Assembly (NCBI GenBank): GCA_036517655.1
Contig: DATDVE010000013.1
Coordinates: 28,364 to 92,363, forward strand
Direction of reading: 5' to 3'
Source: Minisyncoccota bacterium
Lineage (GTDB): Bacteria; Patescibacteriota; Minisyncoccia; Phycocordibacterales; DATDSR01
DNA: 64,000 nucleotides
Below are positions 22,123 through 64,000 of the stretch, piece by piece (position 1 is the stretch's first letter; each line of letters opens with the position of its first letter). The notes beneath the pieces are model-generated. The model was not told the DNA's origin, searched no databases, and was given only the letters and a program-made list of their open reading frames with translations. Position numbers and translations under genes: made by a program.

Positions 22123-25100
22123 ATGACTGGCCCCACACCGGCTAATTTGCCAGAGAAGTCTGACGCTGCCAAGAGAGAAGAAGAAACTCTCAAGTTTTGG
22201 CAGGAAAACAAAATCTTCGAGAAGTCCCTCAAGTTAAGAGAGGGCAAAGAAGAGTTTGTCTTTTATGATGGCCCACCGTTTGCTACCGGCTTGCCCCACC
22301 ATGGCACATTACTTTCCTCTGTGGCTAAAGATGTTATTCCGCGATACAAAACAATGCGCGGGTTTTATGTACGCAGGCGCTGGGGCTGGGATACTCACGG
22401 TTTACCTATAGAGAATATGATCGAGAAGGATTTGGGGCTAAAGTCAAAAAAAGATATTTTGGCATTGGGGATTGAGCAGTTTAACGAAGCTTGCCGGGCT
22501 AAAGTTATGCAATACGCGCATGATTGGCAGAAATACGTTGATCGAGTTGGGCGCTGGGTTGAGTTTGAGAGCGCATACAAGACAATGGACGCAACGTACA
22601 CAGAGAGCGTGTGGTGGGCGCTCAAACAAATGCACGAGAAAGGCTTGCTATATGAGGGCAGGAAAGTGCTCATGTACTGTCCACATTGCGAGACGCCCCT
22701 GGCCAAAGCCGAGATTGCCATGGATAACTCATATAAAGATGTTACAGAAGAAGCCGTCACAGTGAAGTTTAGGTTGAAAATTGAAAATTGGAAATTGAAA
22801 ATTGCAGATACGCCCACGTATCTGCTGGCCTGGACTACCACGCCATGGACACTCCCTGCCAATGTGGCACTAGCTGTTGGGCCGGAGATCGAGTACTCGT
22901 TAGTAACTCACCCGGACTCCGTCTCGCCCTCTCTTATTAATAAGAGAGGGGTAGGGGTGAGTTATATTGTGGCTTCCGCATTAGTTGAGAAGCATTTTGG
23001 CAAAGATGCAAAAGTTGAGAAAACTTTTTTTGGCAAAGATTTAGAGGGGATAGAGTACGAGCCGCTCTTCCAGATTCCAGCTGTCCAGCAATCTGGTAAG
23101 CCAGCGTACTATGTTGCTCTGGCAGACTTTGTGAGTACAGAAGAAGGCACAGGCATTGTGCACACGGCTGTGATATATGGCGAGGACGACTACCAGCTAG
23201 GACTGAAAAATGATTTGCCCATGGTTCCCATATTAAATTCAAATGGCACTTACAATGATTTAGTGCCGGAGTTTTTGCAGGGGCAATACATCAAGAAAGC
23301 AGATAAGTTAGTGATAGAGGATCTCGAGAAGAGGGGTTTACTTTTCTCCAAAGCGCCAAACACGCATAGTTATCCGCATTGTTATCGTTGTGGCACGGCG
23401 CTCATATATAACGCGCTCTCCAGTTGGTTTGTCAACATTCAGAAGATCAAAGCGCGCATGATTGAGCTCAATGAGAAGATAAACTGGGTGCCAGAGCACC
23501 TGAAGCACGGCAGATTCTTGAACATTGTCGAGAACGCCCCCGATTGGACAATCTCGCGTAACAGATTCTGGGCAAGTCCATTGCCGATCTGGAAATGTAG
23601 TGAATGCGATTTAGTTAAAGTTGTGGGATCCCTCTCGGATTTGGAAGATAACCGCTCCACCAAACCGAATAAGTACATTTTGGTTCGTCATGGTCAGAGC
23701 GAAAAGAATAGTGGCAACGGAGAGCAGGGGGTCATCGCCACTACTCGCGAGGGTGATAGGTACCACTTAACAGAAGAAGGTCGAGAGCAGAGCAGGAAAA
23801 TTGCCTCTGAACTCAAATCACAAAACATTGACCTAATTGTGACCTCGCCTTATCTGCGCACTAAGGAGACGGCAGAGGCAATAGGAAGCCTTCTGGGCGT
23901 GAAGGTAGAAGAGGACGAAAGATTGAAGGAACTCCAGCTGGGTCAGACGCTCGAGGGCAAGACATGGGATGCTTTCAGAGAATTCGAGGGGAAGCGCGGT
24001 TTCGATGATCACTTAGGAGAGGGAGAGAGTTGTCGCGAGATGTTGGAACGTATGAGAGCCGTTGTTGTTGACCTAGATAAGAAGTACCAAGGGAAAAGCA
24101 TTGTTCTTGTGAGCCATGGTGATCCACTTTGGCTTCTGCGTTCTTATCTTATGAATCTCTCTCCTCAAGAAACACTCAAGCAGCATGATTCTCTGTATCC
24201 TAAGCGGGGGGAATTTTATGTTTTATCTCACAGCAATTACCCAAGGAACAAAAACATGGAGCTTGATTTTCACCGGCCCTACATTGATGCGATTAAGCTT
24301 GCTTGTTCATGTGGGGGCGAAATGGTGCGCATACCGGAGGTGGTTGATTGCTGGGTGGAATCTGGCTCGATGCCCTTCGCCGAGTATCATTACCCCACAG
24401 AAAACAAAAAAGAATTTGAAGGCCGATTTCCGGGAGACTACATAGCCGAGTACATTTCCCAGACCAGGACTTGGTTCTATTACATGCTCGCTGTTTCGAC
24501 AGCACTCTTTGATCGCGAGCCATTCAAGAATGTTGTAACAACTGGCAACTTACTTGCAGCGGATGGAGCCAAGATAAGTAAGTCTAAAGGCAACTATACG
24601 GACCCGCTTCTTCTGATTGATAAATATGGAGCAGATGCATATCGCTACTACGAAATGGTATCTGTTGTTATGCAGGGGGAAGATGCGCTCTTCAAAGACG
24701 ACGAGGTGAAAGAAGTGTATCAGCGCATGATAAACATTCTCTGGAATGTTGTTCAATTTTATACGACGTATAAAATTGAAGGGCAAAGTGCAAAGGTCAA
24801 AAATCAAAATTACACTTCAAAATTTGAAAATGTGCTGGATCGGTGGATACTCGCAAGATTGGCAGAACTCAATCGTGATGTGACAGAGAATCTAGATAAA
24901 TTTGATACAGTCAAAGCCGGTCGGCCAATCAGGGACTTTGTCACGGATCTATCAACCTGGTATATTCGCCGGTCGCGCGATCGCTTTAAATCAGATAATG
25001 CGCAAGATAGAGACAGTGCTATTGGGACGACTAGATTTGTGCTGCTGGAGCTCTCTAAACTAATAGCGCCGTTTATGCCATTCCTTGCCGAACAAGTATA

Positions 25101-25605
25101 CAAAGCCGTAGGTGGTGAACTCGAGTCAGTCCATCTGGAGAACTGGACTGAAATAAAGTCCGAGCCAGAGCATTCTGATGTTCTTGAGAACACCAGAATA
25201 ACGCGCGACATAGTGTCGCTAGCGCTCGAGGCACGCCAGAAGGAGGGGATCAAAGTGCGCCAGCCGCTTGCAAGTTTACAAACTAGCGCAAAGCTTGCTC
25301 CAGAATATCTGGAGTTGATAAAAGACGAGGTGAATGTCAAAGAAGTAAAGTTTGGCCCAGAGCTCCTTCTCGACACAAACATAACGCCTGAACTCGAACT
25401 CGAAGGCAAGATGCGCGATCTAGTAAGATCTGTGCAAGAGAAGCGCAAGGACTTGGGTCTCCAGCCCACTGATCAGGTCAATCTCACTCTCCCAACTTCA
25501 CTTGGGGATCTGATCCCTAAGTTTGAAAGCGAAATCAAAAAATCTGTGCATGCACAAAATGTGTCATTAGCAGACACACAAGAAATAAAGATAGAAAAAG
25601 TATGA
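22123..25605 (+). CDS. ileS: Isoleucine--tRNA ligase with in-frame MITE insertion and inserted histidine-phosphatase domain
   Basis: PFATGLPHHGT (HIGH), WTTTPWTLPAN, KISKSKGN (KMSKS). 1160 aa. MITE at 22904-22964. PGAM-like domain (LVRHGQSEKN, TSPYLRTKETAEAI, LVSHGDP) at about 23632-24255, between the CxxC and CxC zinc-finger halves. Confidence 0.9.
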   Translation: MTGPTPANLPEKSDAAKREEETLKFWQENKIFEKSLKLREGKEEFVFYDGPPFATGLPHHGTLLSSVAKDVIPRYKTMRGFYVRRRWGWDTHGLPIENMIEKDLGLKSKKDILALGIEQFNEACRAKVMQYAHDWQKYVDRVGRWVEFESAYKTMDATYTESVWWALKQMHEKGLLYEGRKVLMYCPHCETPLAKAEIAMDNSYKDVTEEAVTVKFRLKIENWKLKIADTPTYLLAWTTTPWTLPANVALAVGPEIEYSLVTHPDSVSPSLINKRGVGVSYIVASALVEKHFGKDAKVEKTFFGKDLEGIEYEPLFQIPAVQQSGKPAYYVALADFVSTEEGTGIVHTAVIYGEDDYQLGLKNDLPMVPILNSNGTYNDLVPEFLQGQYIKKADKLVIEDLEKRGLLFSKAPNTHSYPHCYRCGTALIYNALSSWFVNIQKIKARMIELNEKINWVPEHLKHGRFLNIVENAPDWTISRNRFWASPLPIWKCSECDLVKVVGSLSDLEDNRSTKPNKYILVRHGQSEKNSGNGEQGVIATTREGDRYHLTEEGREQSRKIASELKSQNIDLIVTSPYLRTKETAEAIGSLLGVKVEEDERLKELQLGQTLEGKTWDAFREFEGKRGFDDHLGEGESCREMLERMRAVVVDLDKKYQGKSIVLVSHGDPLWLLRSYLMNLSPQETLKQHDSLYPKRGEFYVLSHSNYPRNKNMELDFHRPYIDAIKLACSCGGEMVRIPEVVDCWVESGSMPFAEYHYPTENKKEFEGRFPGDYIAEYISQTRTWFYYMLAVSTALFDREPFKNVVTTGNLLAADGAKISKSKGNYTDPLLLIDKYGADAYRYYEMVSVVMQGEDALFKDDEVKEVYQRMINILWNVVQFYTTYKIEGQSAKVKNQNYTSKFENVLDRWILARLAELNRDVTENLDKFDTVKAGRPIRDFVTDLSTWYIRRSRDRFKSDNAQDRDSAIGTTRFVLLELSKLIAPFMPFLAEQVYKAVGGELESVHLENWTEIKSEPEHSDVLENTRITRDIVSLALEARQKEGIKVRQPLASLQTSAKLAPEYLELIKDEVNVKEVKFGPELLLDTNITPELELEGKMRDLVRSVQEKRKDLGLQPTDQVNLTLPTSLGDLIPKFESEIKKSVHAQNVSLADTQEIKIEKV
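22904..22964. mobile_element. MITE-like palindromic element copy 2, in frame within ileS
   Basis: TAACTCACCC...GGGGTGAGTTA with internal CCCTCTCTTATTAATAAGAGAGGG. Translated as VTHPDSVSPSLINKRGVGVSY inside IleRS. Confidence 0.8.
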
Positions 25606-47688: not shown

Positions 47689-48417
47689 CTTGGAGGCCTT
47701 GCCTCCAAGTTATAAGGGTGATGATTAGATGTCTCCAATAGCAAAACTATCTAATTTTTTTGATTTTTTTACTTCTAACATGAGTTGCAAAGAATCTAAA
47801 GCAAATTTCCTGTAGTCATTCGTGTTCTTAAACTGGTCAAGTATGATTTTTTTCTCACAAATAGACAAGGTACTTTCTTTCATATATTCGTCCCAACTAC
47901 TTCGCACCAACTTAGAGGCCTTGCCTCCAAGTTGGTGAACTTCTGGGTTCAGGTTCACATAAGCACTACAGTGCAGCAGGTCGTCATTGCTGAGTATTCG
48001 TCTTGCTTTAAATTTTCCTTGGTACAAAGACCCAGATCGTTTATATCTATTATTTATGTAATAGGCAAAACCTCCAGATAGTCTTCCAAGGAACATACTG
48101 ATACCGTTTTCCACTAGTTGTTTCAATATCAGATGGAAATGATTCGGATTTAAGCAATACGCGACTATTTCCACGAGTTTTTTCTTGGGTCGTTTTTTAT
48201 CAGGTTTAGCAAAAGACTGTTCATAAATGCTACCTATTGGCTCAACAACGTTAAAAAGTATTAGGCTTTCCACAAACCGATTTGAATCTAAAGGATCTCG
48301 AGTGATATCGCACCCTTCAGCCCCGCGATTACAAATGTGGTAGTACTCATCGTGAGCGAAGGGCTCCTTTCGTGATGACATTGGTTTAATCTAACACTTG
48401 GAGGCAAGGCCTCCAAG
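47689..48417. mobile_element. IS200/IS605-like or REPtron-like element: Y1 (HUH) transposase flanked by inverted REP hairpins
   Basis: Hairpins CTTGGAGGC-CTT-GCCTCCAAG (47689-47709) and CTTGGAGGC-AAG-GCCTCCAAG (48397-48417) in opposite orientation. A third copy (47911-47931) lies inside the transposase ORF. Confidence 0.65.
47725..48381 (-). CDS. Y1 HUH transposase (IS200/IS605 TnpA or RAYT)
   Basis: YYHICNRG (~YHV.NRG), NPNHFHLIL (HUH motif), SLYQGKF (catalytic Tyr region). Confidence 0.7.
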   Translation of the reverse strand: MSSRKEPFAHDEYYHICNRGAEGCDITRDPLDSNRFVESLILFNVVEPIGSIYEQSFAKPDKKRPKKKLVEIVAYCLNPNHFHLILKQLVENGISMFLGRLSGGFAYYINNRYKRSGSLYQGKFKARRILSNDDLLHCSAYVNLNPEVHQLGGKASKLVRSSWDEYMKESTLSICEKKIILDQFKNTNDYRKFALDSLQLMLEVKKSKKLDSFAIGDI

Positions 48418-51634: not shown

Positions 51635-54600
51635 ATGAAGAGGCTCTTACTTTTTTCGGCCTTTACTGTCTTTGCTGTTGCTCTATTTGCTGGCAGAGCT
51701 TATGCCTTGCCCACCGCTTATCTTGGCTATGAAGGCCAGCTCACCAACTCCTCCGATACAGCCCTGACGGGGAGTTACGATATTACCTTTAAGCTTTATT
51801 ATGTTTTGTCTGGAGGCACAGCTATCTGGACAGAGACCCACACTGATCTATCTGTCTCAAGCGGTTATTTTGCCGCCACTTTAGGTTCCACAACGCCCTT
51901 TTCGAATATAGATTTCCGCAACCCTCTTTACCTTGGTATCACTGTCGAGTCTGATTCGGAAATGTCACCCAGACAATTGATCCATTCAAGTGCCTATAGT
52001 CAAACTGCTTCTACCACGCTCTCTGTTTACGCCACTACCACCCAACCCACCAGCGCCTCGGGTGGTAGCGTCTACTACAACGCCACTGACGGCCGGGCCT
52101 TCATATACGACGCGGTCAATTCTGCCTGGCGACGTCTTGGCCTTTGGGCCACCACTACCACCGGTGCCGCATATTATAACGACGGTCGTGTTGGTGTGGG
52201 CACAACTTCTCCGGGTGCGACTTTCTCGGTGCAAGGTGACGAACTAATCTCTGGCACAAGTACCGTTGGCAACCTAGTCGCCACAAGTTCACTAAAAATT
52301 CTTGGCACAGCTACGTCAACCGGAGCGAACGGTTGGGATATAACGGGCGGCTGCTTCGCAATAAACGGCGTCTGTATCACCGGTAGTTCCGCCACTGACA
52401 TCACTTTCTCCACAACCTCAGCCGACTACTGGAAGACCGTTAACAATTTCTTTTCCACTACTTCGGCTGATTATAATTTTGAGATAGCTGTCTCTGCCAC
52501 AAGCTCCTTGCCCAAACTTTCCACTCTTGCAGGCCTTGTTACCCTCGGCTCAAGTACAGCAACCACCACTGCCCTAGGTCACTTCGGCATCACGTCTAAT
52601 TTCTTGGTCAGTGGTTTCAGTTCCCTAACCAAATTTGGCGCCACAAACGGCACAAGTACTACCTTCCAAACCTCCAATCTGGGTGTGGGTACTGATTACC
52701 TGACCGACATCACCGGTACTGGTCTCTCGATCGTGGGTGGAGTCCTCAACTGCGCCACCGCTTCTCCCCTTACAATTGGCTGCCTCTCTACCACCGACTG
52801 GACTCTATTCAACAACAAAGTCTCCTCCACTTCTATAGATACTTCTGCTGAACTTGCTGCACTTCTTACTGACGAATCCGGCAGTGGCGCTTTTATCCTT
52901 GATTCTTCGAACCTTCCTTCTAAATGGGCCACCTCGACCGGTTCGACTACTGCGATTATCCCAAGTGGCGGTGATTCTATCAGTTTGGGTATTGGCACAA
53001 GCACTCCCGGCTCACGCCTGTCAGTGGGTGGAGTTGCTAACTTCAGTGCAGCAACTTCGTCATTTTATTCTAGTGGCGGTATTGATCTTGCAGCCGGCTG
53101 CTTCGCTATAAACGGCACTTGCCTCACTGCCGGTGGTATCACGGCGAGTCAGATTGCGCAGAGCAAGTGGGCTACGTCGACTACAGACTCGAGTGCTATC
53201 TACTCTGCCGAAGCAACCAAAGTTGGTATTGGTACTAGCTCGCCATACGCTGCTCTCTCCGTAGTGGGCGCATCGGGCGTAGTGGCTGATCGCTACACGG
53301 CCACAAGCACGGCTACGTCGTCAGACTTCCAGGGTTTGTTTGCCACCTTTGCCACTACCACTTCACTCTTTAGTACCACTGCTTCAACTACCAATTTGTA
53401 TGCTGATACCGCAAGTCTTGCTTCATCTACAATATATTCTCTCAACCTGCTCGGTAGTGGCACAACTACAGCTTTCAACGGCATCAATCTCACTAATGGC
53501 TGTTTCTCGATCAGGGGGACTTGCGTGGGTGGGTCCTCATCATCTGGCGCCCCTTCTAATTCCAAGTGGTCAACTTCAACAGACAACGTTTCGATTTATG
53601 TTAATGCTGCGACTAACGTGGGTATTGGCACAAGTTCGCCATATACTACCCTTGCCGTCTCCGGTTCTGTCATTCTTGATTCAAATTCGATTACGTTCGC
53701 ATCAAGCTCTGCTACGTCGCTCACCATCAACTACGGTGTTTCCTCAACGTCAACTATTCCGGTAACTAAGTGGAACGCTTGGTCTATTGCAACCTCCACT
53801 ACAGCTCTCTCTATTTTTAGCATTGATACTATAGGTCCGTATGCAAGTTCAAGCTTCGCTGGTAACTTCGTAATTGACGGCGGCAGATTAAGTCATGATG
53901 CAAGCACTGGCGAAACCTCGATCGTTAACTTGAGCACCGGACCGCTTAACTTTGAAGACGGGGCTGGCTGGGTCTCGTGGACTAATATTGCCGCCACGAG
54001 CTCAGCCACGGCTGATAACGACGTACAGGCCTACACTGCCCAACTGGGGAGCAACGACGTGCTCACTATCTACGGCCAAGCTGATGGCCCGAGTAACGGC
54101 GCCATTGATACCTTGCGCACAATTATTGGCACCACCACGGCCACACTCATGAGTTCGACTAACATTCCCTATAACTCTCTTATAGTCTCAAACTCTGCCT
54201 TGTGCGTGGGCAATACTTCCGCTGGTAACTGCACGGAATTTGCCATGAAGCGTGGTCAGATTGTGGGTTGGGGTGGAGGCATCTTTATGGCAAGCTCCAC
54301 GGGCATAGTAGGTGTCGGTACCACTTCTCCATACGCCACACTTTCTGTGGTGGGAGCATCGGGTGTTGTGGCAGATAAATACTTTGCCACATCTACGCGC
54401 GCCACAAGCACCTTCATGGGTGGTGTAGAGATCGGCACAAGTACGGCACCCAAAAATTGGAAGCTTACAGTCCAGGGCGGCGTGTGCATCACGAGTGGTA
54501 ATACTTGTCCCGACGTTGAATCTCCCGGCGGCCTGACTGTTGATACGGCTGATGCAACACCGGACGCAGATGACATAGGCGAAGTCTTCGACGTGGCCGA

Positions 54601-55363
54601 GCGCTACCTAGCCAGCGAAGAAGTGAGCGCTGGCGAAATAGTAGCTCTTGATCTTGAGGCAGAAAAGAGCGCAACAGTTAAGCGAGCGACCGAGGGAGAT
54701 GTGCTGATAGGCGTAATGTCCACTGCACCCGCGATTGCTTTCAACGGTCCAAGCTTGACCCTCGGTCCTGACAGAGAAGCGACAAGCACTAAACCCCTAG
54801 TTGCCCTAGTTGGTCGCGTGCCGGTCAAAGTAAACGTTGAGGGCGGCGAAATCAGAAAAGGTGACAGGATATCAGCGAGCAGTGAACTTGGGATAGGAAA
54901 AAAAGCTTTGCCAAGCGAGCAATCTGTCGGCTTTGCTCTTGAGAACTGGCCAAACGTAGACGATCCAGAGGATGACACGGTGCTTGTGTATGTTAAGTTA
55001 TCAGATACCGATACTCACAGAAACTCAATTGAAACTAGTGGAAACTCGTTGTCGGGAGATAAGGGAAGTAGATTAGATATGTCCGGTTGGGGCATAAACA
55101 GCGAAGGCGAACTGGTAGTTAAGAGAATAAGGGCCAAAGAATTGTGCCTGGGTAGTACATGTATTACAGAATCTGATTTGAAAGAGATCCTGAATAACCG
55201 ATCAACTGAAACTGATGGAAGTTTATTGCCGGAACCAGAAGTAACTCCCGAACCAGAGCCGGAAGTAATTCCTGAACCGGAGCAAATTGAACCGATTGAG
55301 GAAGTCGCATCTCTGCCTGAACCCGAAGAACTCACCGAGACAGTAGAGCCAATAGTAGAATAG
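51635..55363 (+). CDS. Giant secreted surface/fibre-like protein with internal repeats and acidic C-terminal PEPE repeats
   Basis: Signal peptide. 1242 aa rich in S/T/A/G. Near-duplicate modules GIGTSSPYAALSVVGASGVVADRYTATST / GVGTTSPYATLSVVGASGVVADKYFATST. C-terminus PEPEVTPEPEPEVIPEPEQIEPIEE. Confidence 0.65.
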   Translation: MKRLLLFSAFTVFAVALFAGRAYALPTAYLGYEGQLTNSSDTALTGSYDITFKLYYVLSGGTAIWTETHTDLSVSSGYFAATLGSTTPFSNIDFRNPLYLGITVESDSEMSPRQLIHSSAYSQTASTTLSVYATTTQPTSASGGSVYYNATDGRAFIYDAVNSAWRRLGLWATTTTGAAYYNDGRVGVGTTSPGATFSVQGDELISGTSTVGNLVATSSLKILGTATSTGANGWDITGGCFAINGVCITGSSATDITFSTTSADYWKTVNNFFSTTSADYNFEIAVSATSSLPKLSTLAGLVTLGSSTATTTALGHFGITSNFLVSGFSSLTKFGATNGTSTTFQTSNLGVGTDYLTDITGTGLSIVGGVLNCATASPLTIGCLSTTDWTLFNNKVSSTSIDTSAELAALLTDESGSGAFILDSSNLPSKWATSTGSTTAIIPSGGDSISLGIGTSTPGSRLSVGGVANFSAATSSFYSSGGIDLAAGCFAINGTCLTAGGITASQIAQSKWATSTTDSSAIYSAEATKVGIGTSSPYAALSVVGASGVVADRYTATSTATSSDFQGLFATFATTTSLFSTTASTTNLYADTASLASSTIYSLNLLGSGTTTAFNGINLTNGCFSIRGTCVGGSSSSGAPSNSKWSTSTDNVSIYVNAATNVGIGTSSPYTTLAVSGSVILDSNSITFASSSATSLTINYGVSSTSTIPVTKWNAWSIATSTTALSIFSIDTIGPYASSSFAGNFVIDGGRLSHDASTGETSIVNLSTGPLNFEDGAGWVSWTNIAATSSATADNDVQAYTAQLGSNDVLTIYGQADGPSNGAIDTLRTIIGTTTATLMSSTNIPYNSLIVSNSALCVGNTSAGNCTEFAMKRGQIVGWGGGIFMASSTGIVGVGTTSPYATLSVVGASGVVADKYFATSTRATSTFMGGVEIGTSTAPKNWKLTVQGGVCITSGNTCPDVESPGGLTVDTADATPDADDIGEVFDVAERYLASEEVSAGEIVALDLEAEKSATVKRATEGDVLIGVMSTAPAIAFNGPSLTLGPDREATSTKPLVALVGRVPVKVNVEGGEIRKGDRISASSELGIGKKALPSEQSVGFALENWPNVDDPEDDTVLVYVKLSDTDTHRNSIETSGNSLSGDKGSRLDMSGWGINSEGELVVKRIRAKELCLGSTCITESDLKEILNNRSTETDGSLLPEPEVTPEPEPEVIPEPEQIEPIEEVASLPEPEELTETVEPIVE

Positions 55364-55427: not shown

Positions 55428-55617
55428 ATTCAATATCACTCACACGCCCTTGTTGATTGACTGTCTAATCCTAAAGGATTTTGACCAAGGCTTTTGTGGT
55501 GTGAGTGTCTGCGTGGACTGTCACGAAACGTGGCGATCCCATTTCGGCATGAGCCCTTGGCAGAACGGTTCCTCAATGCCTATCGGACCTACAATCATGT
55601 CCGAATTGTATTGATAC

Positions 55618-56181
55618 ATGATATCAAACCCAAAACCGATGTCAAACCCAACAATCAAAGATAAAAAACCAATCAGGCTTAGGGGTAAGACCATTGTCTA
55701 CGTTGATTGGGCAAATGTTTATGGCTGGAGCAAATCGCTTAAGAAAGAAATAAGTTTAGAAAAGTTATTCGCTTATTTCAGGATTTACGATGGGGTCGAG
55801 GATATTCGTCTCTATTTTGGCGAGGATGTTAATCCTAAGTCAAAAAAGTTTTTGGTTGATGCCAGAAATATCGGATACACTGTTGTTAGTAAAGAAGTAA
55901 AATATATTGCCTCCGGCAAGATCGAAGGACAGGTGATACATAGAAGAAAATGCGATTTTGACATGGAAGTTAGTATTGACGTCCACAAGGCTTTGGCCGG
56001 AGGAGTTGAGGGCTTCGTCTTTTTGACCGGGGACGGTGACTTCGCGCCTCTCTACGAGATGTTAATTGCCTTACGTAAACAAGTGGTGGTGATATATACT
56101 AAAGGTCATATTGGGAGAGAAGTGTGGGCTATTAGTAAGGGCATTTTTAAGGCGCAATTAAAGAATATAGTGGATCTATAA
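55618..56181 (+). CDS. NYN-domain (LabA/YacP-like PIN-fold) ribonuclease
   Basis: GKTIVYVDWANVYG...FDMEVSIDV...FLTGDGDFAPL typical NYN signature. Confidence 0.7.
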   Translation: MISNPKPMSNPTIKDKKPIRLRGKTIVYVDWANVYGWSKSLKKEISLEKLFAYFRIYDGVEDIRLYFGEDVNPKSKKFLVDARNIGYTVVSKEVKYIASGKIEGQVIHRRKCDFDMEVSIDVHKALAGGVEGFVFLTGDGDFAPLYEMLIALRKQVVVIYTKGHIGREVWAISKGIFKAQLKNIVDL

Positions 56182-56189
56182 AAGATCAT

Positions 56190-56209
56190 CCCCCCGATTT
56201 CTCGGGGGG
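56190..56209 (+). terminator. GC hairpin after NYN gene
   Basis: CCCCCCGA-TTTC-TCGGGGGG. Confidence 0.45.
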
Positions 56210-56259
56210 CGTGATTAGATAAAGCATATCATTCCCAAAACCCATGTCAAGCCCTAAAA

Positions 56260-56333
56260 ACACAGAAATATCAGGATACTACGATATCAAGATATTGAGA
56301 TACTAATAAAAACTGCGATACTTAGATACTATG
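56260..56333. repeat. Left arm of about 75-nt GATACT-rich inverted repeat flanking the four-helix-bundle gene
   Basis: GATACTACGATATCAAGATATTGAGATACTAATAAAAACTGCGATACTTAGATACT pairs with the reverse complement of 56721-56815. Confidence 0.6.
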
Positions 56334-56720
56334 GCGGAGAAGAAAAGATATATACAGCTAAAAGATCTAGAGGTTTATAAACACGCAAGAGAGCTCTCGA
56401 GACTTGGTTGGGAGATGTATAAATCCTTCGACTGGCAGACAAAGAAGGTGATCGGAGATCAATTTATCACAGCAACTGATTCTGTGGGAGCTAATATTGC
56501 AGAAGGCTACAGCCGTTACCATTATCTAGACAGAATAAAGTTTTTCTACAATTCCCGAGGCTCGCTTGCCGAGGCGGCTGACCACTGGTTGGCCATTCTC
56601 CATGAACGAGGTAAAATAGATGATAAGCAACACGAAGCATTTGCTTTGATTGCCAGCAGGGTGTCGTTAAAACTCCAGAACTTCATCAATGCAATATATA
56701 AAACCAAAAACAGCGAGTAA
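56331..56720 (+). CDS. Four-helix-bundle protein (family usually found in 23S rRNA intervening sequences)
   Basis: EVYKHARELSRLGWEMYKSF...IGDQFITATDSVGANIAEGYSRYHY...YNSRGSLAEAADHWLAILHERG matches the TIGR02436-type four-helix-bundle family. Confidence 0.75.
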   Translation: MAEKKRYIQLKDLEVYKHARELSRLGWEMYKSFDWQTKKVIGDQFITATDSVGANIAEGYSRYHYLDRIKFFYNSRGSLAEAADHWLAILHERGKIDDKQHEAFALIASRVSLKLQNFINAIYKTKNSE

Positions 56721-58929
56721 AGTATCTAAGTATCGTAGTATCCCAGTATCTATTAGTATCGGTTTTATTTTCCTAGTATCTATAAGTATCTTGATATCAA
56801 CTAATATCGCCTCCATCGTCTCCGCTTTCACTATTCAAAAGACCCTGCCCACTCAACCCGACCTGCAAAACGGCCTAGTGGGCCACTGGACATTTGATGG
56901 CAAGGATATTTCCGGTACCAGCGCCACAGACCGAAGCGGCAACAACAACACCGGCACCCTCACCAACGGCCCACTTGCCACTGTCGGCAAAATCGGCCAG
57001 GCCCTGAACTTTGATGGGAGTGATGATTATGTAAGTATTGCGGACAATAATTCTCTTGACCTTACATCTGCGGTCACTATTAGCTTATGGTTTAAAGCTG
57101 ATGGGTGGACTGCCGCATACCAAGGGCTCGTTGCGAAAAGAATTGGCAATTCGTCCAATTACGGTTTGAATGTAAGTAGCACAGGAAGTGCATTTCAGTG
57201 GTTCTTCCATGACGGGGATTATCAGATAGTTGATATAAATGCAAGTACCGTTTCTACAGGCCAGTGGCATCATTTTGTGGGGACTTTTAGTGATACTGGC
57301 GATGTAGTGGGGTCTATCTATATTGATGGAACTTTGAAAAAGACAGAAACATTTACGGCTAGAAATCTTGTCGCAAATACCAATACTCTTCGTATCGGTG
57401 AGAGTAATAATCCGGCAAGTGGCCCCGAACATTTCAATGGCTCCGTCGACGACGTGCGCGTGTACAGCCGGGCGCTTAGTGCGGCCGAGATTACTAAACT
57501 GTACAAACTCGGGGCCACCAGTCACGTCAATGTCACCCTCCCCACCCAACCCGACCTGCAATCTGGTCTGGTCGGCCACTGGACGTTTGACGGCAAAGAT
57601 ATGGGCCCGAATGTACTTGATAAATCAGGCAACGCAAACCACGGCAATGCTGTTTACGGCACCACTGGCAATACGAGCACGACTACAGTCGCGGGCCGGA
57701 TCGGCCAGGCACTTGTCTTTGATGGATTTCCTGTGCTCAATGGATTAGCTGACAGCGTTCTTCTCCCTGGTGTTTCAGTGACGGGGACCAGCCATAGCGT
57801 TTCCATGTGGCTCAATGTTACCGGGCTTCCAGCCGACACATACGGTACCCTTTTCAGTGATGCGTTTGGGAACACTGGACTTTATTATTATAACGATGGG
57901 GCGACAGAAAAGATTACTTATTTCTATAGTCTTGCCGATAATTTCGCCTCAACTACAATAAAAGTTGATAACAAGTGGCACCATTTTGCAGCTGTTTCCG
58001 GTACTGGCGGAGTTACTTTCTATGTCGACGGAGTTAGAAGTGGCGCAGTGTTTGGTCAAGTCCCGGATTATTCGGCAACAAGAATCGGAGGTGACATTTT
58101 TAACGATGAGTTTAAGGGTGCCCTCGACGACATCCGTCTCTACAATCGTCCACTTAGCGCGGCAGAAGTAACTAAACTATACAAACTCGGGGCCACCAGC
58201 CACGTCAACACAACCCTCCGCACCCAACCCGATCTGCAAAATGGCCTAGTGGGCCACTGGACATTCGACGGAAAGGACGTGGGGCCGAATGTACTTGATA
58301 AATCAGGCAACGCAAACCACGGCAATGCTGTTTACGGCACCACTGGCAATACGAGCACGACTACTGTGCCAGGCCGCATCGGCCAAGCTTTGAGCTTTGA
58401 TGGCGTGAACGACTATGTTCTGGTAAATAATAGTGCAAGTCTCACTATGACCACTGGTGATATAAGTATGGGAGGGTGGTTATATCGAAATGCGTCATTC
58501 TCGGTCAATCCCAATATCTTCCACAAAAAGAGTGGTACAAATGATATTAATAGTGGATACGCTATGGGAGTATTAAGAAGCACCCATTCATTGGGTGGCC
58601 ACAAGCCAGCTTTCAGTTTCGCCGATGGTACAAATGCCGCTTATTTCTACCCCACATCAATAACATACGCAACACCTTTCAGAAAGTGGGTCCATGCTTT
58701 CGTAGTTTTCAATTCTACTACCGATACGGCGCAAATATATATCAACGGACAACCAGTCGATACAACTAACGTTTATGCCAGCGCGATTGGTTCAGTAACT
58801 AACACCACAGCGCCAAATATAGGCAGGATATCCACATCCTACTTTGGTGGAAATATTGATGATTATCGCGTCTACAGCCGGGCGCTTAGCGCGGGGGAGG
58901 TGAGGAAATTGTATGAGATGGGAAGATAG
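56689..58929 (+). CDS. Secreted protein with three tandem LamG/concanavalin-A-like lectin domains
   Basis: Each about 228-aa repeat begins TQPDLQ.GLVGHWTFDGKD and ends DD.R.Y.RALSA.E..KLY.LG. Start uncertain: the N-terminal hydrophobic segment is encoded by the right inverted repeat and overlaps the four-helix-bundle gene. Confidence 0.65.
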   Translation: MQYIKPKTASKVSKYRSIPVSISIGFIFLVSISILISTNIASIVSAFTIQKTLPTQPDLQNGLVGHWTFDGKDISGTSATDRSGNNNTGTLTNGPLATVGKIGQALNFDGSDDYVSIADNNSLDLTSAVTISLWFKADGWTAAYQGLVAKRIGNSSNYGLNVSSTGSAFQWFFHDGDYQIVDINASTVSTGQWHHFVGTFSDTGDVVGSIYIDGTLKKTETFTARNLVANTNTLRIGESNNPASGPEHFNGSVDDVRVYSRALSAAEITKLYKLGATSHVNVTLPTQPDLQSGLVGHWTFDGKDMGPNVLDKSGNANHGNAVYGTTGNTSTTTVAGRIGQALVFDGFPVLNGLADSVLLPGVSVTGTSHSVSMWLNVTGLPADTYGTLFSDAFGNTGLYYYNDGATEKITYFYSLADNFASTTIKVDNKWHHFAAVSGTGGVTFYVDGVRSGAVFGQVPDYSATRIGGDIFNDEFKGALDDIRLYNRPLSAAEVTKLYKLGATSHVNTTLRTQPDLQNGLVGHWTFDGKDVGPNVLDKSGNANHGNAVYGTTGNTSTTTVPGRIGQALSFDGVNDYVLVNNSASLTMTTGDISMGGWLYRNASFSVNPNIFHKKSGTNDINSGYAMGVLRSTHSLGGHKPAFSFADGTNAAYFYPTSITYATPFRKWVHAFVVFNSTTDTAQIYINGQPVDTTNVYASAIGSVTNTTAPNIGRISTSYFGGNIDDYRVYSRALSAGEVRKLYEMGR
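56721..56815. repeat. Right arm of GATACT-rich inverted repeat
   Basis: AGTATCTAAGTATCGTAGTATCCCAGTATCTATTAGTATCGG...CTAGTATCTATAAGTATCTTGATATC. Confidence 0.6.
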
Positions 58930-59019
58930 GGCGAAATTGGCCATGCTTTTTCATCAAGCCCTGCATAGGTTTATCACATGTCTTGACTAGTTTAAAGTTG
59001 TAGCTTAAACTGGCCATAT

Positions 59020-60246
59020 ATGAAGGGATACATACATAGATACTTGGAATCGGCTGTTTTGAGGATTTCGAAGACATTTCCGGTTCTTTTATTGACCGGA
59101 CCTCGGCAGGTGGGGAAGACTACGCTTCTGCAGTATCTTATTGCGCAAGAAGGGAAAAAGCGCGGGTATGTCAGTTTGGATGATTTTAAAACGCGCACAC
59201 TGGCCAATGAGGATCCGGCGCTGTTTCTCCAGCAAAATCCTTCTCCCTTGCTCATTGATGAAGTTCAATATGCTCCCAAGCTTTTTACCTACATTAAGAT
59301 TGCTGTGGATCGAGATCGCAACAATGGCATGTATTGGCTTACCGGATCGCAGCAATTCCACATGATGAAAGGAGTATCAGAATCACTCGCTGGGCGCGTG
59401 GGCATATTGTCGCTCCTGGGCCTCTCGCAGGCAGAAATTGATGGTATGCCGCAAAAAGAGGAGCCGTGGATGCCAGGCGCCGCTGCCAAAGCAGAGGGTA
59501 CGAGCACCACAGCCATATTCAGTAAAATTATCAAAGGATCGTTTCCCGCGCTTTTTCAGGATCAAGCTCCCAAACTTGACGAATACTATGGCGCTTATCT
59601 CCGTACCTATGTTGATCGCGATGTGCGGGACATCATCAAAGTTACCTCTCTTGCCTCATTTGAAAAATTTGTTTCCGTTTGCGCGGCAAGGACAGCATCA
59701 CTTTTGAATTATTCTGATCTGGCCCGGGATGCCGATATCAGTGTTCCTACCGCAAAAGAGTGGATGAGCATTCTCGAGGCCGGACACCATGTGTTTCTAC
59801 TCCGTCCCTATTATCGTAATCTCACCAAGCGTCTCATCAAGGCCCCAAAGCTTTATTTTCTTGATACCGGACTTGCGGCGTATCTTACAGGCTGGCGCGA
59901 TCCTGGAACGGCACTTCGCGGGGCCTATGCCGGCCAGTTGTTTGAAACATTGATCATCAGTGAGATTATCAAAAGCTATGTGCATCGTGGCAAGGATCCG
60001 CGTTTCTTTTCATATTTTCGAACCAAAGAGCAAGAGGAGGTCGACTTTCTCATTGATCAAAATGGAATACTCACGCCTGTTGAGGTTAAACTTGGAATGC
60101 AAGTGAACAAGGCTGATCTCCGCGGTGTTGAAGCGCTTAAAGCTACCAAGACAAAGGTCGGGCTTGGCGCAGTCATTGCGCCCGTGGAGGCGCCGTATCA
60201 TCTAAACCAAGATGTTATCGTTGAGCCGCCAAGCGCGATTTCATGA
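59020..60246 (+). CDS. AAA+ ATPase with DUF4143 domain
   Basis: Walker A LLLTGPRQVGKTT. 408 aa. Arrangement typical of the DUF4143 ATP-binding protein family. Confidence 0.75.
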   Translation: MKGYIHRYLESAVLRISKTFPVLLLTGPRQVGKTTLLQYLIAQEGKKRGYVSLDDFKTRTLANEDPALFLQQNPSPLLIDEVQYAPKLFTYIKIAVDRDRNNGMYWLTGSQQFHMMKGVSESLAGRVGILSLLGLSQAEIDGMPQKEEPWMPGAAAKAEGTSTTAIFSKIIKGSFPALFQDQAPKLDEYYGAYLRTYVDRDVRDIIKVTSLASFEKFVSVCAARTASLLNYSDLARDADISVPTAKEWMSILEAGHHVFLLRPYYRNLTKRLIKAPKLYFLDTGLAAYLTGWRDPGTALRGAYAGQLFETLIISEIIKSYVHRGKDPRFFSYFRTKEQEEVDFLIDQNGILTPVEVKLGMQVNKADLRGVEALKATKTKVGLGAVIAPVEAPYHLNQDVIVEPPSAIS

Positions 60247-60316
60247 CGACGTGCGCATCTACAACCGGGCGTTGAGTGCGGGGGAGGTATTAAAATTGTA
60301 CGAGATGGGGAGGTAA
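60244..60316 (+). pseudogene. Orphan duplicate of the LamG-protein 3' end (encodes DDVRIYNRALSAGEVLKLYEMGR*)
   Basis: About 78% nt identity to 58853-58929. Begins exactly at the ATPase stop codon. Confidence 0.6.
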
Positions 60317-60344
60317 TTTGACCCTATTTCTTTAATAATATACA

Positions 60345-60956
60345 ATGGAAGGGTGGAGATATCACCTTTCCATCAGACACATGTCCACAGATAATCTCAT
60401 TGCCAAGCTATATCAGTCCCCCAAAACAATCCTAACCACAAAGGATATTGCTTTAACTTGGGGGGAAACTAACCCCATCAATCTTTTCTCAAAGATCAAA
60501 TATTATGCCAAACAAGGATCGCTGATCCGCCTATCTAGGGGGATTTTTGCCAAAGATAAAAATTATAATCCTAAAGAACTAGCCACGAGTATTTATACTC
60601 CATCATACATCAGTTTTGAAACAGTCCTAAGGGAAGCCGGTATAATTTTCCAGTACCACGATTCGATCTTTGTGGCCGGTCCCTATCCCACGATAAAAAA
60701 GTTTGGAGATCAAACGATTACATTTAGGAAATTGAAAGATAGCCTTCTCTATAATGCCAAGGGTGTTAAAAGTGAAAAGAATTACAGCATCGCCACACCG
60801 GAACGAGCCCTCCTCGATACCATGTATTTATCTCCTAAATTTTATTTTGACAATCTGCGACCTATTAACTGGGAGATATGCTTCGAACTTGCAAAAATTT
60901 ATGGCAACAAGCAGTTAATTAAACGAGTCGCAGAATACCAAAAGCATGCTCAATAA
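60345..60956 (+). CDS. AbiEi-family antitoxin/transcriptional regulator (type IV TA)
   Basis: N-terminal wHTH-like region (...GSLIRLSRGIF...) and position immediately upstream of, and overlapping, the AbiEii gene. Confidence 0.65.
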   Translation: MEGWRYHLSIRHMSTDNLIAKLYQSPKTILTTKDIALTWGETNPINLFSKIKYYAKQGSLIRLSRGIFAKDKNYNPKELATSIYTPSYISFETVLREAGIIFQYHDSIFVAGPYPTIKKFGDQTITFRKLKDSLLYNAKGVKSEKNYSIATPERALLDTMYLSPKFYFDNLRPINWEICFELAKIYGNKQLIKRVAEYQKHAQ

Positions 60957-61659
60957 AGAGAAACATCAACTAATCATGGGGCAGATTCTGCGAGATATTT
61001 ACTCGGATACTTCTATCTCATCTTTGCTCGGATTCAAGGGCGGTTCCTGCGCCTACTTTTTCTATGGTCTATCAAGATTTTCTGTCGATCTTGATTTCGA
61101 CCTATTTTCTAGCGACGAAGCTACTCAAAAATTGGTGTATGAAAAAATTGGTAGCATGTTGGGGAGATACGGAGAAATCAAGAATAATTATATAAAACGC
61201 AACACTATTTTTTTCCTGCTCTCATACGGAGACGCAGAGCACAATGTCAAAATTGAAGTTAATGTGAGAATCTTGATGCCCGATCTCAAAGAGCATTACA
61301 AAGTGGAAGAATATCTTGGAATTTCTATGCTTGTGGGCAAAAAGGATTATCTCTTCGCAAGTAAGCTCGCGGCACTCACTGACCGAAGATTGCTTGCTAT
61401 GCGCGATATTTACGATATTTGGTTCTTTGCCAAAAGCAACTGGGATATCGATGCCGAGGTACTCAAGACGAGAACCGGCAAAACTATCAAAGAACGCATG
61501 GCTGATTGCATTGCAGTCATTGAAACGGTTAAAGACAATGAAATTTTGCGAGGACTGGCCGAATTGTTATCGGGCGAAAAAGAAAAGGCGTGGGTCAAAG
61601 TTCACTTAAGAAAAGAGGTTATCTTCCTGCTCAAGAACTACCAGTCGGTATTAAAATAA
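60946..61659 (+). CDS. AbiEii/AbiGii-family nucleotidyltransferase toxin (DUF1814)
   Basis: GFKGGSCAYFFYGLSRFSVDLDFD matches the GG(T/S)...RFSEDLDF signature of AbiEii. Confidence 0.7.
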   Translation: MLNKEKHQLIMGQILRDIYSDTSISSLLGFKGGSCAYFFYGLSRFSVDLDFDLFSSDEATQKLVYEKIGSMLGRYGEIKNNYIKRNTIFFLLSYGDAEHNVKIEVNVRILMPDLKEHYKVEEYLGISMLVGKKDYLFASKLAALTDRRLLAMRDIYDIWFFAKSNWDIDAEVLKTRTGKTIKERMADCIAVIETVKDNEILRGLAELLSGEKEKAWVKVHLRKEVIFLLKNYQSVLK

Positions 61660-61735
61660 AACTTATGATAAAATTACGAGGCAGAACTGCTGCGAACATG
61701 CCTAAAGTATATTGATGGCACTGAAAATTGAATAA

Positions 61736-63289
61736 ATGGAACATTTATTGAAAATCATAACCCTCATATTTGTTTTTTACGTAGCCTTGCCAACTTACGC
61801 CGCTAATCTCGAGAGTACCAATTACAAAATCTATGGCGGTCAAGTTAACGAGATCATCGGAGAACCGGCTTCTACTAACTATAATCTCAATTCTGGTGGC
61901 AATCCGATAGAAGGGGATACTTCAAGCGCTAATTATAAACTACAATCCGGTTCGGCACTTTCTTTTCCCGGCGCAAGCAGTAGTCCCAGCCCATCTCCCA
62001 GCCCCAGCCCTTCACTCAGCTCCGGTTCCGGTGCTAACGGACCGCCTGATATGCCTAATCTCTTTGTTGTCTCGCCAGGCATTCCTTTACTATCGCCTTA
62101 TCTCCCCCCGCTTCACGAACTTCTGCCAAATCTGCCTGACGACTTCCTCACCCCGCCCACTATTCCGGACTATTCTATCGTAACCGAGGCGGATCTCGCC
62201 GAGTTTGCCAATTTGCCTAGTAGTCTGCGCTTACTCACTCGCAAGTTTCCGAGCCTGGCTGGTACTTTTAGGTCTATCGGGGTCAAAGACTTTTCTGACT
62301 TGGATAGACTTTCGCGAGGTACATTTATTTTGCCCGGTTTTGACGAGCTCGATAAGATTCCCACCGAAGTTGTCTTTGCCCGCTCCGGTGATAAGCTGAT
62401 AAATTTCAACACCCAACTAAAGATTGCCAAATCCGGCCTGGTTACCCAGCTCATCCACGTAATCTCTGGTCACCCGGTTAATCTGGCTATCAGGCCAAAC
62501 GGACAAGTGAAGGAGATTACTGGATACCTTGTCCTGCGAGAGAGCAACTTCTCGCAAGACGCCGATGATAGCGAGAATATTTCTATCGATGTTTCAAGTC
62601 TAACTGCGTCACTCATTCTCGCACAAGCGGGGCAAGTGAAAGTTGACACCGGTCCTAAAAAAATCGAGCTAGAACCGGATCCTAATGTGAATGTGAGTGA
62701 TGAGTTCTTGCTAAATAAATTTACATATTCTGATCCGGACGGGGATGGCATATTTACCACTACTATTACCGCGCCATTTGTAGCCTCAACTTATGAAGTT
62801 ATCACTAATATTACTTACGCTGATGGTAGTACCGGTTCATCTGGCATTAGGCTGATCCTAGTAGTTGACCCAGAAGGTTACGTCTATACAGTTAAGGCCG
62901 GCCTTGAGGCGCGCGTGCCGGATGCTGTTGTCACTATCTTCTGGCGTGATCCGCAGGCAAATGATGGGAAAGGGGAATACGTGCCATGGCCGGCTCGCGA
63001 GTACAGCCAGCGCAATCCGCAGGTTACAGAGAAGGCCGGCGAGTATTCATTCCTAGTGCCGCCTGGCGAATACTACTTAACAGTTGCATCTGCTAAGTAT
63101 CACCCGTACACAAGCGAGCCCTTTATTGTCACAGAAGGCTCGGGTGTGCACATGAATATCGAACTTGCGCCGGTCAGATCCTTTGGTCAAATTCTGCTCT
63201 GGATTGGCTTCTTTATTCTATTCCTGCTACTTCTGCTTATTCTCTTGTTCTTGATAAAGCGCAGGAAGCAAAATAATTATTATCAATAG
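61736..63289 (+). CDS. Secreted protein with SP-repeat linker, carboxypeptidase-regulatory-like domain and C-terminal TM anchor
   Basis: Signal peptide. SPSPSPSPSPS linker. YVYTVKAG...YYLTVASAKYHP beta-sandwich. C-terminal ILLWIGFFILFLLLLLILLFLIKRRKQ. Confidence 0.55.
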   Translation: MEHLLKIITLIFVFYVALPTYAANLESTNYKIYGGQVNEIIGEPASTNYNLNSGGNPIEGDTSSANYKLQSGSALSFPGASSSPSPSPSPSPSLSSGSGANGPPDMPNLFVVSPGIPLLSPYLPPLHELLPNLPDDFLTPPTIPDYSIVTEADLAEFANLPSSLRLLTRKFPSLAGTFRSIGVKDFSDLDRLSRGTFILPGFDELDKIPTEVVFARSGDKLINFNTQLKIAKSGLVTQLIHVISGHPVNLAIRPNGQVKEITGYLVLRESNFSQDADDSENISIDVSSLTASLILAQAGQVKVDTGPKKIELEPDPNVNVSDEFLLNKFTYSDPDGDGIFTTTITAPFVASTYEVITNITYADGSTGSSGIRLILVVDPEGYVYTVKAGLEARVPDAVVTIFWRDPQANDGKGEYVPWPAREYSQRNPQVTEKAGEYSFLVPPGEYYLTVASAKYHPYTSEPFIVTEGSGVHMNIELAPVRSFGQILLWIGFFILFLLLLLILLFLIKRRKQNNYYQ

Positions 63290-63326
63290 TTTATTAGTAA
63301 TTTTTAGTCACAATAATTTAAAAGCC

Positions 63327-63725
63327 ATGGAGTCAAACACAAATACAACTAGTCCACATTCTAAGTTCGTCCACTCTGTTCTCGCTGTTGTCGTGCTTGC
63401 GCTCCTGGCTCTCTCTTCCGCCCTTATCTTCCAGTACAAAGATCTGAAAGAGCAGCTATCTGGCACAAACGGGACAGAGTATGCTCCCGAGAACACCCGA
63501 GTCCTGCTCTTTCTGGATGATTTCGTAAACCTTGTGCTTGGTTCAACTACTGAAATCAGCCTTGAAGACAGGTTACGCTTAGAGAATGAAGTACGAGCCT
63601 TGGGGGATAAAGAAATCCTAGCCACTTGGCAGGCCTTCACCGAGGCCCCTGACGATATGGTGGCTCAAGGACAGGTCATCAAGCTCCTGCGCCTTCTGGT
63701 GGCCAAGCTTAAAGAAGCCCAATAG
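63327..63725 (+). CDS. Small membrane-anchored hypothetical protein
   Basis: One TM (VLAVVVLALLALSSALIF) plus a helical C-terminal region. Confidence 0.4.
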   Translation: MESNTNTTSPHSKFVHSVLAVVVLALLALSSALIFQYKDLKEQLSGTNGTEYAPENTRVLLFLDDFVNLVLGSTTEISLEDRLRLENEVRALGDKEILATWQAFTEAPDDMVAQGQVIKLLRLLVAKLKEAQ

Positions 63726-63887
63726 TGGTGCGCGCACCGCGTAGCCCCGCTCGTAGCGGGGCGGAGTGGTGTGGATATCAAAATAGGGCCTAGATCATAA
63801 GGGGAGTATAATTTCCCATAGGTAATTAGCCGTGGCGGGAGGTCGAATACCAGCCTTGGCGCATGCTTTATTAATCAAATTATACTT

Positions 63888-64000
63888 ATGCAAAACGAAC
63901 TAGTAGACACATTGAGCACTTCGCTCAATAACGTCTGGAGCGGGGTAATCGCATTCCTGCCGAAGTTTATCATTGCTCTCATTATCTTTATTATCGGCTG
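63888..64000 (+). CDS. Membrane protein, 3' truncated by window edge
   Basis: ATG at 63888 after a TATACT-like box. MQNELVDTLSTSLNNVWSGVIAFLPKFIIALIIFIIG. Confidence 0.3.
   Translation, partial: MQNELVDTLSTSLNNVWSGVIAFLPKFIIALIIFIIG

Follow-up and report, generated by a model that had tools for sequence, protein, structure and literature searches.

The DNA analysed here, referred to below as the window, is a stretch of 64,000 nucleotides from a bacterium of the Patescibacteria, or candidate phyla radiation (CPR), and the region in question is an island of six consecutive open reading frames (ORFs), all on the plus strand, at 55618-61659. In order, these encode a NYN (LabA/DUF88-type) predicted RNase (55618-56181), a four-helix-bundle (4HB) protein of the 23S_rRNA_IVP family (56331-56720), a 746-aa protein with three Laminin_G_3 (LamG) domains (56689-58929), an AAA_14 ATPase with a winged helix and a DUF4143 domain (59020-60246), and the pair AbiEi (60345-60956) and AbiEii (60946-61659). 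All six had been named in an earlier note on this DNA, and Pfam, NCBIfam and PADLOC profiles recover each of them at the positions given there; the biochemical activities discussed below are predicted from sequence. The site is chromosomal and belongs to a Candidatus Paceibacterota (Patescibacteria/CPR) genome: the window contains housekeeping genes (ArgRS, IleRS, MetRS, FtsK, RecA and L10/L12), and proteins identical to those from L10 through AbiEii occur under consecutive accessions in a deposited Candidatus Paceibacterota bacterium metagenome-assembled genome. In our judgement it is likely that the island is an accessory hot spot of independent modules, lodged between the conserved NYN gene and a conserved gene for a 517-aa surface protein, and that these modules have been reshuffled by recombination among LamG paralogues.

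The ATPase is identified by its profile matches (AAA_14 6e-29; DUF4143 2.2e-45; PADLOC PDC-S01 1.8e-108, full-length, with residues 1-406 on profile positions 8-416 of 422). PDC-S01 is a single-gene phage-defence candidate proposed through guilt-by-embedding (COG1373) (bioRxiv 10.1101/2024.01.29.577857; PMC12988326) and is among the commonest predicted defences (PMC12988326; PMC13356809), while DUF4143 has been classed as PD-(D/E)XK (PMC3424549). The Walker A motif (GPRQVGKTT), the Walker B motif (D80 E81) and residues E340, D342, E355 and K357 are invariant in 24 homologues, and an AlphaFold2 model (pLDDT 87.8) finds its best PDB fold matches in the Sso1545 AAA+ protein, Apaf-1, ORC and Avs. 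The protein would be a STAND/ORC-like ATPase fused to a PD-(D/E)XK nuclease, and could act as an NTP-dependent nucleic-acid sensor and cutter. Setting aside a 99%-identical protein of the same species, the nearest homologues are 61% identical, and named homologues come from Deltaproteobacteria, Nitrospirae, Margulisbacteria, Saganbacteria, Patescibacteria and one archaeon, a spread across phyla that fits the horizontal spread described for PDC-S01 (PMC12988326). Furthermore, the 145 immediate neighbours of ATPase homologues in 80 genomes fall into 176 Pfam families, of which the commonest, another DUF4143, appears only five times, so that the ATPase has no conserved partner and stands alone. 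In its full-length match, intact ATPase and PD-(D/E)XK residues, lack of a partner and spread over phyla and domains it is like the PDC-S01 of PADLOC, but it differs from other PDC-S01 genes in lying between two LamG 3' ends and in its replacement, in other strains of the species, by a divergent allele with identical promoter boxes. A promoter-like site, TTGACT-17-TAAACT, precedes it at 58983-59011, and the gene would have been acquired horizontally, with a promoter of its own, and swapped between strains.

The AbiE genes are predicted to form a complete, self-contained type IV toxin-antitoxin (TA) or abortive-infection pair. AbiEi, the putative antitoxin and autorepressor, matches the PADLOC AbiEi model over residues 16-196 (3.7e-57), and AbiEii, a DUF1814 nucleotidyltransferase toxin by homology, matches PF08843 (3.6e-15; 57 bits against a cut-off of 22.5) and PADLOC AbiEii over residues 3-234 (6.2e-64), with the motifs KGGS...SVDLDFD and RDIYD in its translation. 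A promoter-like site (TTGACC-17-TACAAT) occupies 60318-60346, and from its position and the start of the PADLOC alignment at residue 16, the true start of AbiEi is probably M13, at 60381. AbiEi antitoxins characteristically have two domains, the N-terminal one being a winged helix-turn-helix. AbiE systems have been studied as type IV TA or abortive-infection modules in Lactococcus and Streptococcus agalactiae (PMC3985639), and the MenAT DUF1814 toxins are related (PMC7450476). The pair agrees with such systems in its full-length PADLOC matches, its two-gene operon with the antitoxin first and overlapping ORFs (an 11-nt overlap of abiEii with the end of abiEi, same strand), and its nucleotidyltransferase with GG[ST]...DxD and D..D motifs. 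It departs from them in its CPR host and in an AbiEi that has no Pfam match and falls below the NCBIfam equivalog cut-off (TAA_AbiEi 2.9e-7; 30 bits against 150). By homology to the studied family, AbiEii would arrest growth, and AbiEi would neutralise AbiEii and repress the operon. No repeats of its own bound the module, and its borders are set solely by comparison with L141, a locus of a different organism from the same metagenome, which shares exactly 60327-61659 at 70% DNA identity (AbiEi 7e-91; AbiEii 2e-113) between unrelated flanks and without the ATPase. Since only the two-gene module is shared, AbiE is portable on its own.

Two co-occurrence tests bear on the suggestion, made in the earlier note, that NYN, the ATPase and AbiE, next to the LamG protein, constitute one system. 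The first was anchored on the ATPase and covered 80 loci, each from a different genome and together spanning many phyla, and the 10 kb to either side were searched by phmmer with the window proteins; the second was anchored on NYN and covered 80 metagenome loci (L093-L172; NYN identity 46-64%), all Patescibacteria-like. Here and below, L-numbers denote comparison loci or contigs, some of them contigs of the window's own species. NYN, 4HB and LamG were each found at 0/80 ATPase loci, and the ATPase at 0/80 NYN loci. The AbiEi+AbiEii pair occurred at two of the ATPase loci, directly downstream in L040 and upstream on the other strand in L087, and at one of the NYN loci (L141, 7.5 kb from NYN), with a weak AbiEi-only match in L147; it was never adjacent to NYN. 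Similarly, AAA_14, DUF4143 and AbiEii are not among the 25 commonest families of 118 downstream neighbours of NYN, which comprise Laminin_G_3 (14), 23S_rRNA_IVP (11), DUF2341 (5), PemK (4) and, for the remainder, housekeeping families.

A single undescribed multi-gene defence system, in which NYN, the DUF4143 ATPase and the AbiE pair cooperate and LamG perhaps acts as sensor, would suit genes that are consecutive, closely spaced and on one strand, and that all carry nucleic-acid-directed domains. We nevertheless regard it as extremely unlikely, given that NYN and the ATPase never co-locate, that AbiE accompanies NYN at only one or two of 80 loci without adjacency, that separate promoter-like sites precede the ATPase and abiE, that scars lie between the genes, that strains exchange the ATPase and LamG parts independently, and that the NYN family mostly adjoins housekeeping genes. 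In effect the three components are scattered and not co-localised in other genomes, the outcome that the earlier note had itself named as fatal to its proposal. Gene order is conserved in relatives for NYN-(4HB)-LamG but not for NYN with ATPase and AbiE, and the former is the only order that recurs: the full trio is present in L095, L096, L110, L128, L135, L137, L138 and L143, and in part in L098 and L146. As these loci fall mostly in one clade of the NYN tree, the trio may reflect inherited synteny and not repeated association. Recognising that nothing points to a joint function averts a spurious call of a new system.

In L139 and L140, NYN is followed by a hairpin/terminator, about 100 nt and then directly a homologue of the 517-aa protein, which in the window is encoded at 61736-63289, after abiEii. 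This arrangement looks like an empty site, relative to which ~56252-61710 of the window, about 5.5 kb, is extra. NYN is a lineage-wide backbone gene rather than island cargo. Such a site would also be expected if the 4HB-LamG-ATPase-AbiE block (~56252-61710) had arrived whole as an integrated mobile element, and GC content is indeed somewhat lower over NYN-4HB and over AbiE. However, the block has no integrase domain among its proteins (Pfam), no transposase and no terminal repeats enclosing it as a whole, no tRNA lies in the window, and the ATPase-AbiE segment has no DNA match in phage or plasmid collections. Moreover, several relatives carry NYN-4HB-LamG without the ATPase or AbiE, and L141 shares AbiE alone, so we consider arrival in one piece very unlikely.

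Contigs of the same species reveal a strain polymorphism that cuts through the island at a 12-nt sequence, CTTGACTAGTTT, in the ATPase promoter (58982-58993). L004 and L007 equal the window up to ~58993, within the promoter-like TTGACTAGTTT-N12-TAAACTGGCCATAT, and then enter a different AAA_14 allele (MITKDDFKERYIQ...GPRQVGKTT...), both contigs ending about 190 nt into the gene. From 58982 to its end the window is matched at 99.94% identity by L174 and L002 (L174 4115-9133 corresponds to window 58982-64000); in these contigs the three-domain LamG gene upstream of the breakpoint is another one and follows a paralogue of a 1242-aa surface protein. Compared with these two haplotypes, the window has the left-hand portion of the first and the right-hand portion of the second, and the switch falls within CTTGACTAGTTT. 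Three independent assemblies contain the junction (L001/L003, L184 and the window), which shows that it is no chimera. On the simplest reading, the segment running from the alternative ATPase to the second 1242-aa paralogue and LamG gene was deleted or inserted when repeated promoter and LamG sequences recombined; the second haplotype is predicted to run LamG3 - alternative ATPase - ... - 1242-aa paralogue - second LamG gene - ATPase - AbiE. The 3' end of LamG itself is present twice: the real end at 58858-58929 is ~81% identical to a second copy at 60245-60318, which encodes DDVRIYNRALSAGEVLKLYEMGR followed by a stop. This copy runs over the stop codon of the ATPase gene and shows ~80% identity to the corresponding ends of both LamG genes known from the species. 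By its resemblance it is taken for the remnant of a truncated LamG paralogue, and it is another scar of the recombination process. That strains of a CPR population exchange PDC-S01 alleles and LamG genes at a single site bears on surface and defence variation in ultra-small, host-dependent bacteria.

As a separate observation on these alleles, the two divergent ATPase genes have identical -35 and -10 boxes and an identical 8 nt downstream (CTTGACTAGTTT ... TAAACTGGCCATAT), with 12-nt spacers that are wholly different (window 58982-59019, L004 13355-13382 and L174 4115-4152 compared), and each allele directly follows a LamG gene. A homologue search with the 64-aa N-terminus of the alternative allele gave no match.

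The best explanation of the island is that its modules act separately and that their adjacency reflects a permissive, recombination-prone site and not a joint mechanism. It resembles defence islands and accessory hot spots in clustering unrelated defence and selfish modules at a strain-variable site with conserved flanks, but differs from the usual defence islands in being small, in holding two recognised defence entries only, and in being interleaved with CPR surface-protein genes. The earlier note was right to see an accessory, strain-variable stretch with selfish or defence-type cassettes, as borne out by the AbiE pair, PDC-S01, a 4HB cassette of the intervening-sequence (IVS) type, the scars and the breakpoint at 58982-58993. 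The PADLOC check it had suggested returned full-length PDC-S01, AbiEi and AbiEii, a weak partial match for NYN (1.4e-4) and none in PADLOC-DB for 4HB or LamG, and its description of the genes as typical of defence islands fits AbiE and PDC-S01 but not NYN, 4HB or LamG. Its statement that the units are each bounded by repeats or scars applies to four of five (NYN, 4HB, LamG with its internal repeats, and the ATPase) but fails for AbiE. As a whole the island is ordinary, two of the commonest predicted defence entries standing beside a selfish cassette and a surface protein, and specialist interest is confined to a small minus-strand unit linked to NYN and to the IVS-like cassette proposed to gate LamG.

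Several facts weigh against a hot spot of independent modules. The two sets of 80 loci are samples of homologues and no census, and AbiE was sought near the ATPase loci by single-sequence phmmer and by Pfam on immediate neighbours, a search that divergent AbiE subfamilies encoded further away could escape. The relative with the apparently empty site is distant (NYN ~57% identical), so the insert may sum many events. In addition, in every same-species contig in which the gene before abiEi is visible (18 carrying contigs, 10 shown), that gene ends 99 nt ahead of abiEi; five of the 10 have the full ATPase there, and in the remaining five the gene is a fragment cut off by the contig end, at an identical distance. 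In L040 (Eggerthellaceae), from an unrelated phylum, the ATPase, abiEi and abiEii likewise follow one another in the same order and on the same strand, so a local coupling of ATPase and AbiE may exist.

This spacing and the order in L040 would be accounted for by a three-gene module of PDC-S01 with AbiEi/AbiEii, in which the ATPase-nuclease would serve as sensor or second effector and the remaining genes would be bystanders; the frequency of 2/80 also exceeds a naive genome-wide expectation. Against such a module, 78 of the 80 ATPase homologues have no AbiE nearby, AbiEii lies outside the 25 most-matched families and thus accounts for at most 1/145 ATPase neighbours, the closest AbiE relative (L141) stands without an ATPase, and in the window a LamG remnant and a separate promoter-like site intervene between the ATPase and abiEi. 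Both are, moreover, among the commonest predicted defence genes, so that chance adjacency in islands is to be expected (PMC12988326; PMC13356809). We consider the three-gene module unlikely and keep to separately acting modules at a shared site. Two new leads arise from the same comparisons, namely the recurring NYN-(4HB)-LamG order and the minus-strand unit downstream of NYN.

The NYN gene (Pfam NYN 2.4e-13; alternative start at 55639, the start used in public gene calls) belongs to a family with 455 homologues, most of which carry no source name; the few that do are nearly all from Patescibacteria, and the best 120 show ~50-67% identity. Five acidic residues (D30, D113, D115, D139 and D141) are invariant among homologues, the sole relative in the PDB is 2QIP, a protein of unknown function, and none of the papers searched links NYN proteins with Patescibacteria. 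No recurrent partner exists upstream of NYN, where 65 neighbours comprise 82 Pfam families. On either side of the gene lies a copy of an imperfect direct repeat, about 52 nt long (left copy 55610-55661, right copy 56214-56266; score 44, against 25 for the best of 500 shuffles), the core of which, CCCAAAACCNATGTCAA, occurs exactly twice in the window with 0 expected. Inside the left copy lies a promoter-like sequence on the minus strand (TTGACA-16-TATCAT, 55645-55618), and the right copy overlaps the minus-strand unit, of which it forms the promoter part. A second promoter-like copy of the form '...AAAACCATGTCAA...TATCCACA' stands about 70 nt upstream of NYN in L131 and L136, which are of another lineage (compare window 55610-55661), and L146 and L161 have two adjacent NYN genes; the extra promoter-like copy may be a trace of tandem NYN modules. 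As to the neighbours of the family, PemK/MazF toxin genes are among the commonest (7/183 scanned; for example L141 8795-9915), and nucleotidyltransferase and reverse-transcriptase genes also occur beside NYN homologues, so that NYN often adjoins TA-type cargo.

Directly 3' of NYN, and convergent with it, lies a putative micro transcription unit on the minus strand (56180-56252), composed of a conserved promoter, a hairpin and a T tract. In the window these are a -35 TTGACA (56250-56245), an extended -10 TGATATGCT with its hexamer at 56228-56223, AATCACG (56216-56210), a GC hairpin (56209-56190) and a T tract (~56189-56180) that reaches the NYN stop codon. The order of elements is kept on the minus strand in 66/66 distinct aligned sequences downstream of NYN, with the consensus TTGACA, 17 nt, TGnTAnnnT, about 6 nt, an invariant AATCACGCC, a GC-rich hairpin and a T tract. 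The loop of the hairpin is mostly GNRA, and stem sequences vary between loci; a covariation count is uninformative because MAFFT misaligns hairpins of differing length. A strict promoter pattern at the fixed distance was found at 61/79 NYN loci, compared to 1.8% of random control windows, and the 10-mer AATCACGCCC occurs on the minus strand once per locus and in the same place at 76/80 NYN loci, compared to four occurrences in 1.3 Mb of ATPase loci. Rfam holds no family matching the unit at gathering thresholds, with chance-level matches only at E <= 10.

The predicted RNA of this unit, about 36 nt, would be complementary to the 3' end of the NYN mRNA. It is conceivable, and we put this forward tentatively, that NYN and the opposite-strand unit form a two-part module widespread in Patescibacteria, in which the small RNA would govern the RNase. 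It could do so by acting in an antisense or antitoxin-like manner on the 3' end of the NYN mRNA, or by serving the RNase as an RNA ligand or decoy. For the unit itself, a role as an insulator is a further candidate beside those of an antisense or antitoxin-like partner and of an RNase ligand. Type I TA systems with convergent antisense RNAs that overlap at the 3' end include txpA/RatA and bsrG/SR4 of B. subtilis, and the RNase-like toxin SymE is paired with the SymR RNA. As a functional analogy limited to NYN and the micro RNA, the likeness to type I systems consists of a strong convergent promoter, a small RNA complementary to the mRNA 3' end and a shared hairpin. The differences are that the predicted RNA is only ~36 nt and that it overlaps the NYN ORF only at the stop codon region. 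CGTGATT, the complement of the AAUCACG 5' end, is absent near the starts of 77 NYN genes and is not enriched within the window. A micro unit tied to an uncharacterised RNase family is a lead for RNA-based regulation or a TA arrangement in Patescibacteria, organisms in which almost no regulation is known.

The 4HB gene (PF05635 1.2e-20; TIGR02436 8.4e-19) is enclosed in an IVS-like cassette at 56274-56798, plus strand, with inverted-repeat arms at 56274-56330 and 56721-56798 that are composed of GATACT/AGTATC hexamers. The RNA of 56255-56775 (521 nt) folds with -135 kcal/mol (z = -4.45), and the arm duplex alone has -56 kcal/mol (z = -6.4); no Rfam family matches the stem at gathering thresholds, and only chance-level matches appear at E <= 10. 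The same layout, with arms of 24-63 nt, is seen in L095 (3648-4180), L096 (771-1291), L110 (812-1292), L137 (10635-11113), L143 (1768-2235) and L146 (3465-3938), where the arms are short tandem repeats of unrelated, lineage-specific sequence and the right arm again lies in the LamG 5' coding region. The system of comparison is the 23S rRNA IVS of Coxiella burnetii, which has an S23p/four-helix-bundle ORF and a stem of -143 kcal/mol (PMC4990558). Both elements measure ~0.45-0.5 kb, have complementary termini that form a long stem of similar energy, carry short tandem repeats immediately before the ORF and encode a protein of the PF05635/TIGR02436 family. The cassette described here differs in standing outside any rRNA gene (no Rfam match, rRNA included, was obtained in the window at gathering thresholds), between NYN and LamG in the leader of a protein-coding gene, and in having a right arm that lies within the LamG ORF and is translated as the hydrophobic signal or anchor segment of LamG, both in the window and in L096.

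The 4HB gene would accordingly sit in the loop of an IVS-type stem-loop within the LamG leader, and processing of the RNase III type would cut the LamG message. As the LamG signal peptide is encoded by the right arm, the stem may control whether the surface lectin after NYN is expressed. IVS-type 4HB cassettes outside rRNA, in which the complementarity of the arms is kept while their sequence is not, offer a handle on the role of a very abundant gene family. A diversity-generating retroelement, with 4HB as a member of the Avd family and the LamG 3' ends as variable and template repeats, was also considered and rejected: no reverse-transcriptase domain is present among the island proteins, and the two 62-nt copies of the LamG 3' end differ at 12 positions, only 3-4 of which are adenines in either copy, so the changes are not adenine-specific.

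The LamG gene overlaps the 4HB stop by 32 nt at its start, contains three internal repeats of ~680 nt each and matches Laminin_G_3 in three stretches (Pfam 2.8e-70). Its N-terminus reads as a basic and hydrophobic segment, and the protein is predicted to be a secreted or anchored surface lectin-type protein of a sort that would be typical of CPR cell-surface repertoires. A LamG gene is present at 17/80 NYN loci, mostly directly downstream of NYN, with or without 4HB.

Other genes in the window are also of note. The 517-aa protein is large and secreted, its N-terminus weakly resembles the CPR pilus protein PamT (2.7e-4), and it has a C-terminal CarboxypepD_reg-like domain and a transmembrane anchor. 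Upstream of NYN, the 1242-aa protein (51635-55363) is likewise large and secreted, and its paralogue in the alternative haplotype lies at L174 1-1968. Further upstream, on the minus strand at 47725-48381, lies a gene resembling Y1_Tnp/REP-associated tyrosine transposases (Pfam 1.7e-6; NCBIfam REP_Tyr_transpos 4.6e-9, below cut-off), homologues of which adjoin LamG genes in four related loci (L096 4007-4261, L105 8641-9369, L112 3248-3925 and L132 8397-9101). Finally, at 22123-25605 on the plus strand, a class I tRNA synthetase (tRNA-synt_1) contains a complete His_Phos_1 domain (residues 519-684, 2e-33), which is placed immediately after the N-terminal part of the catalytic domain.

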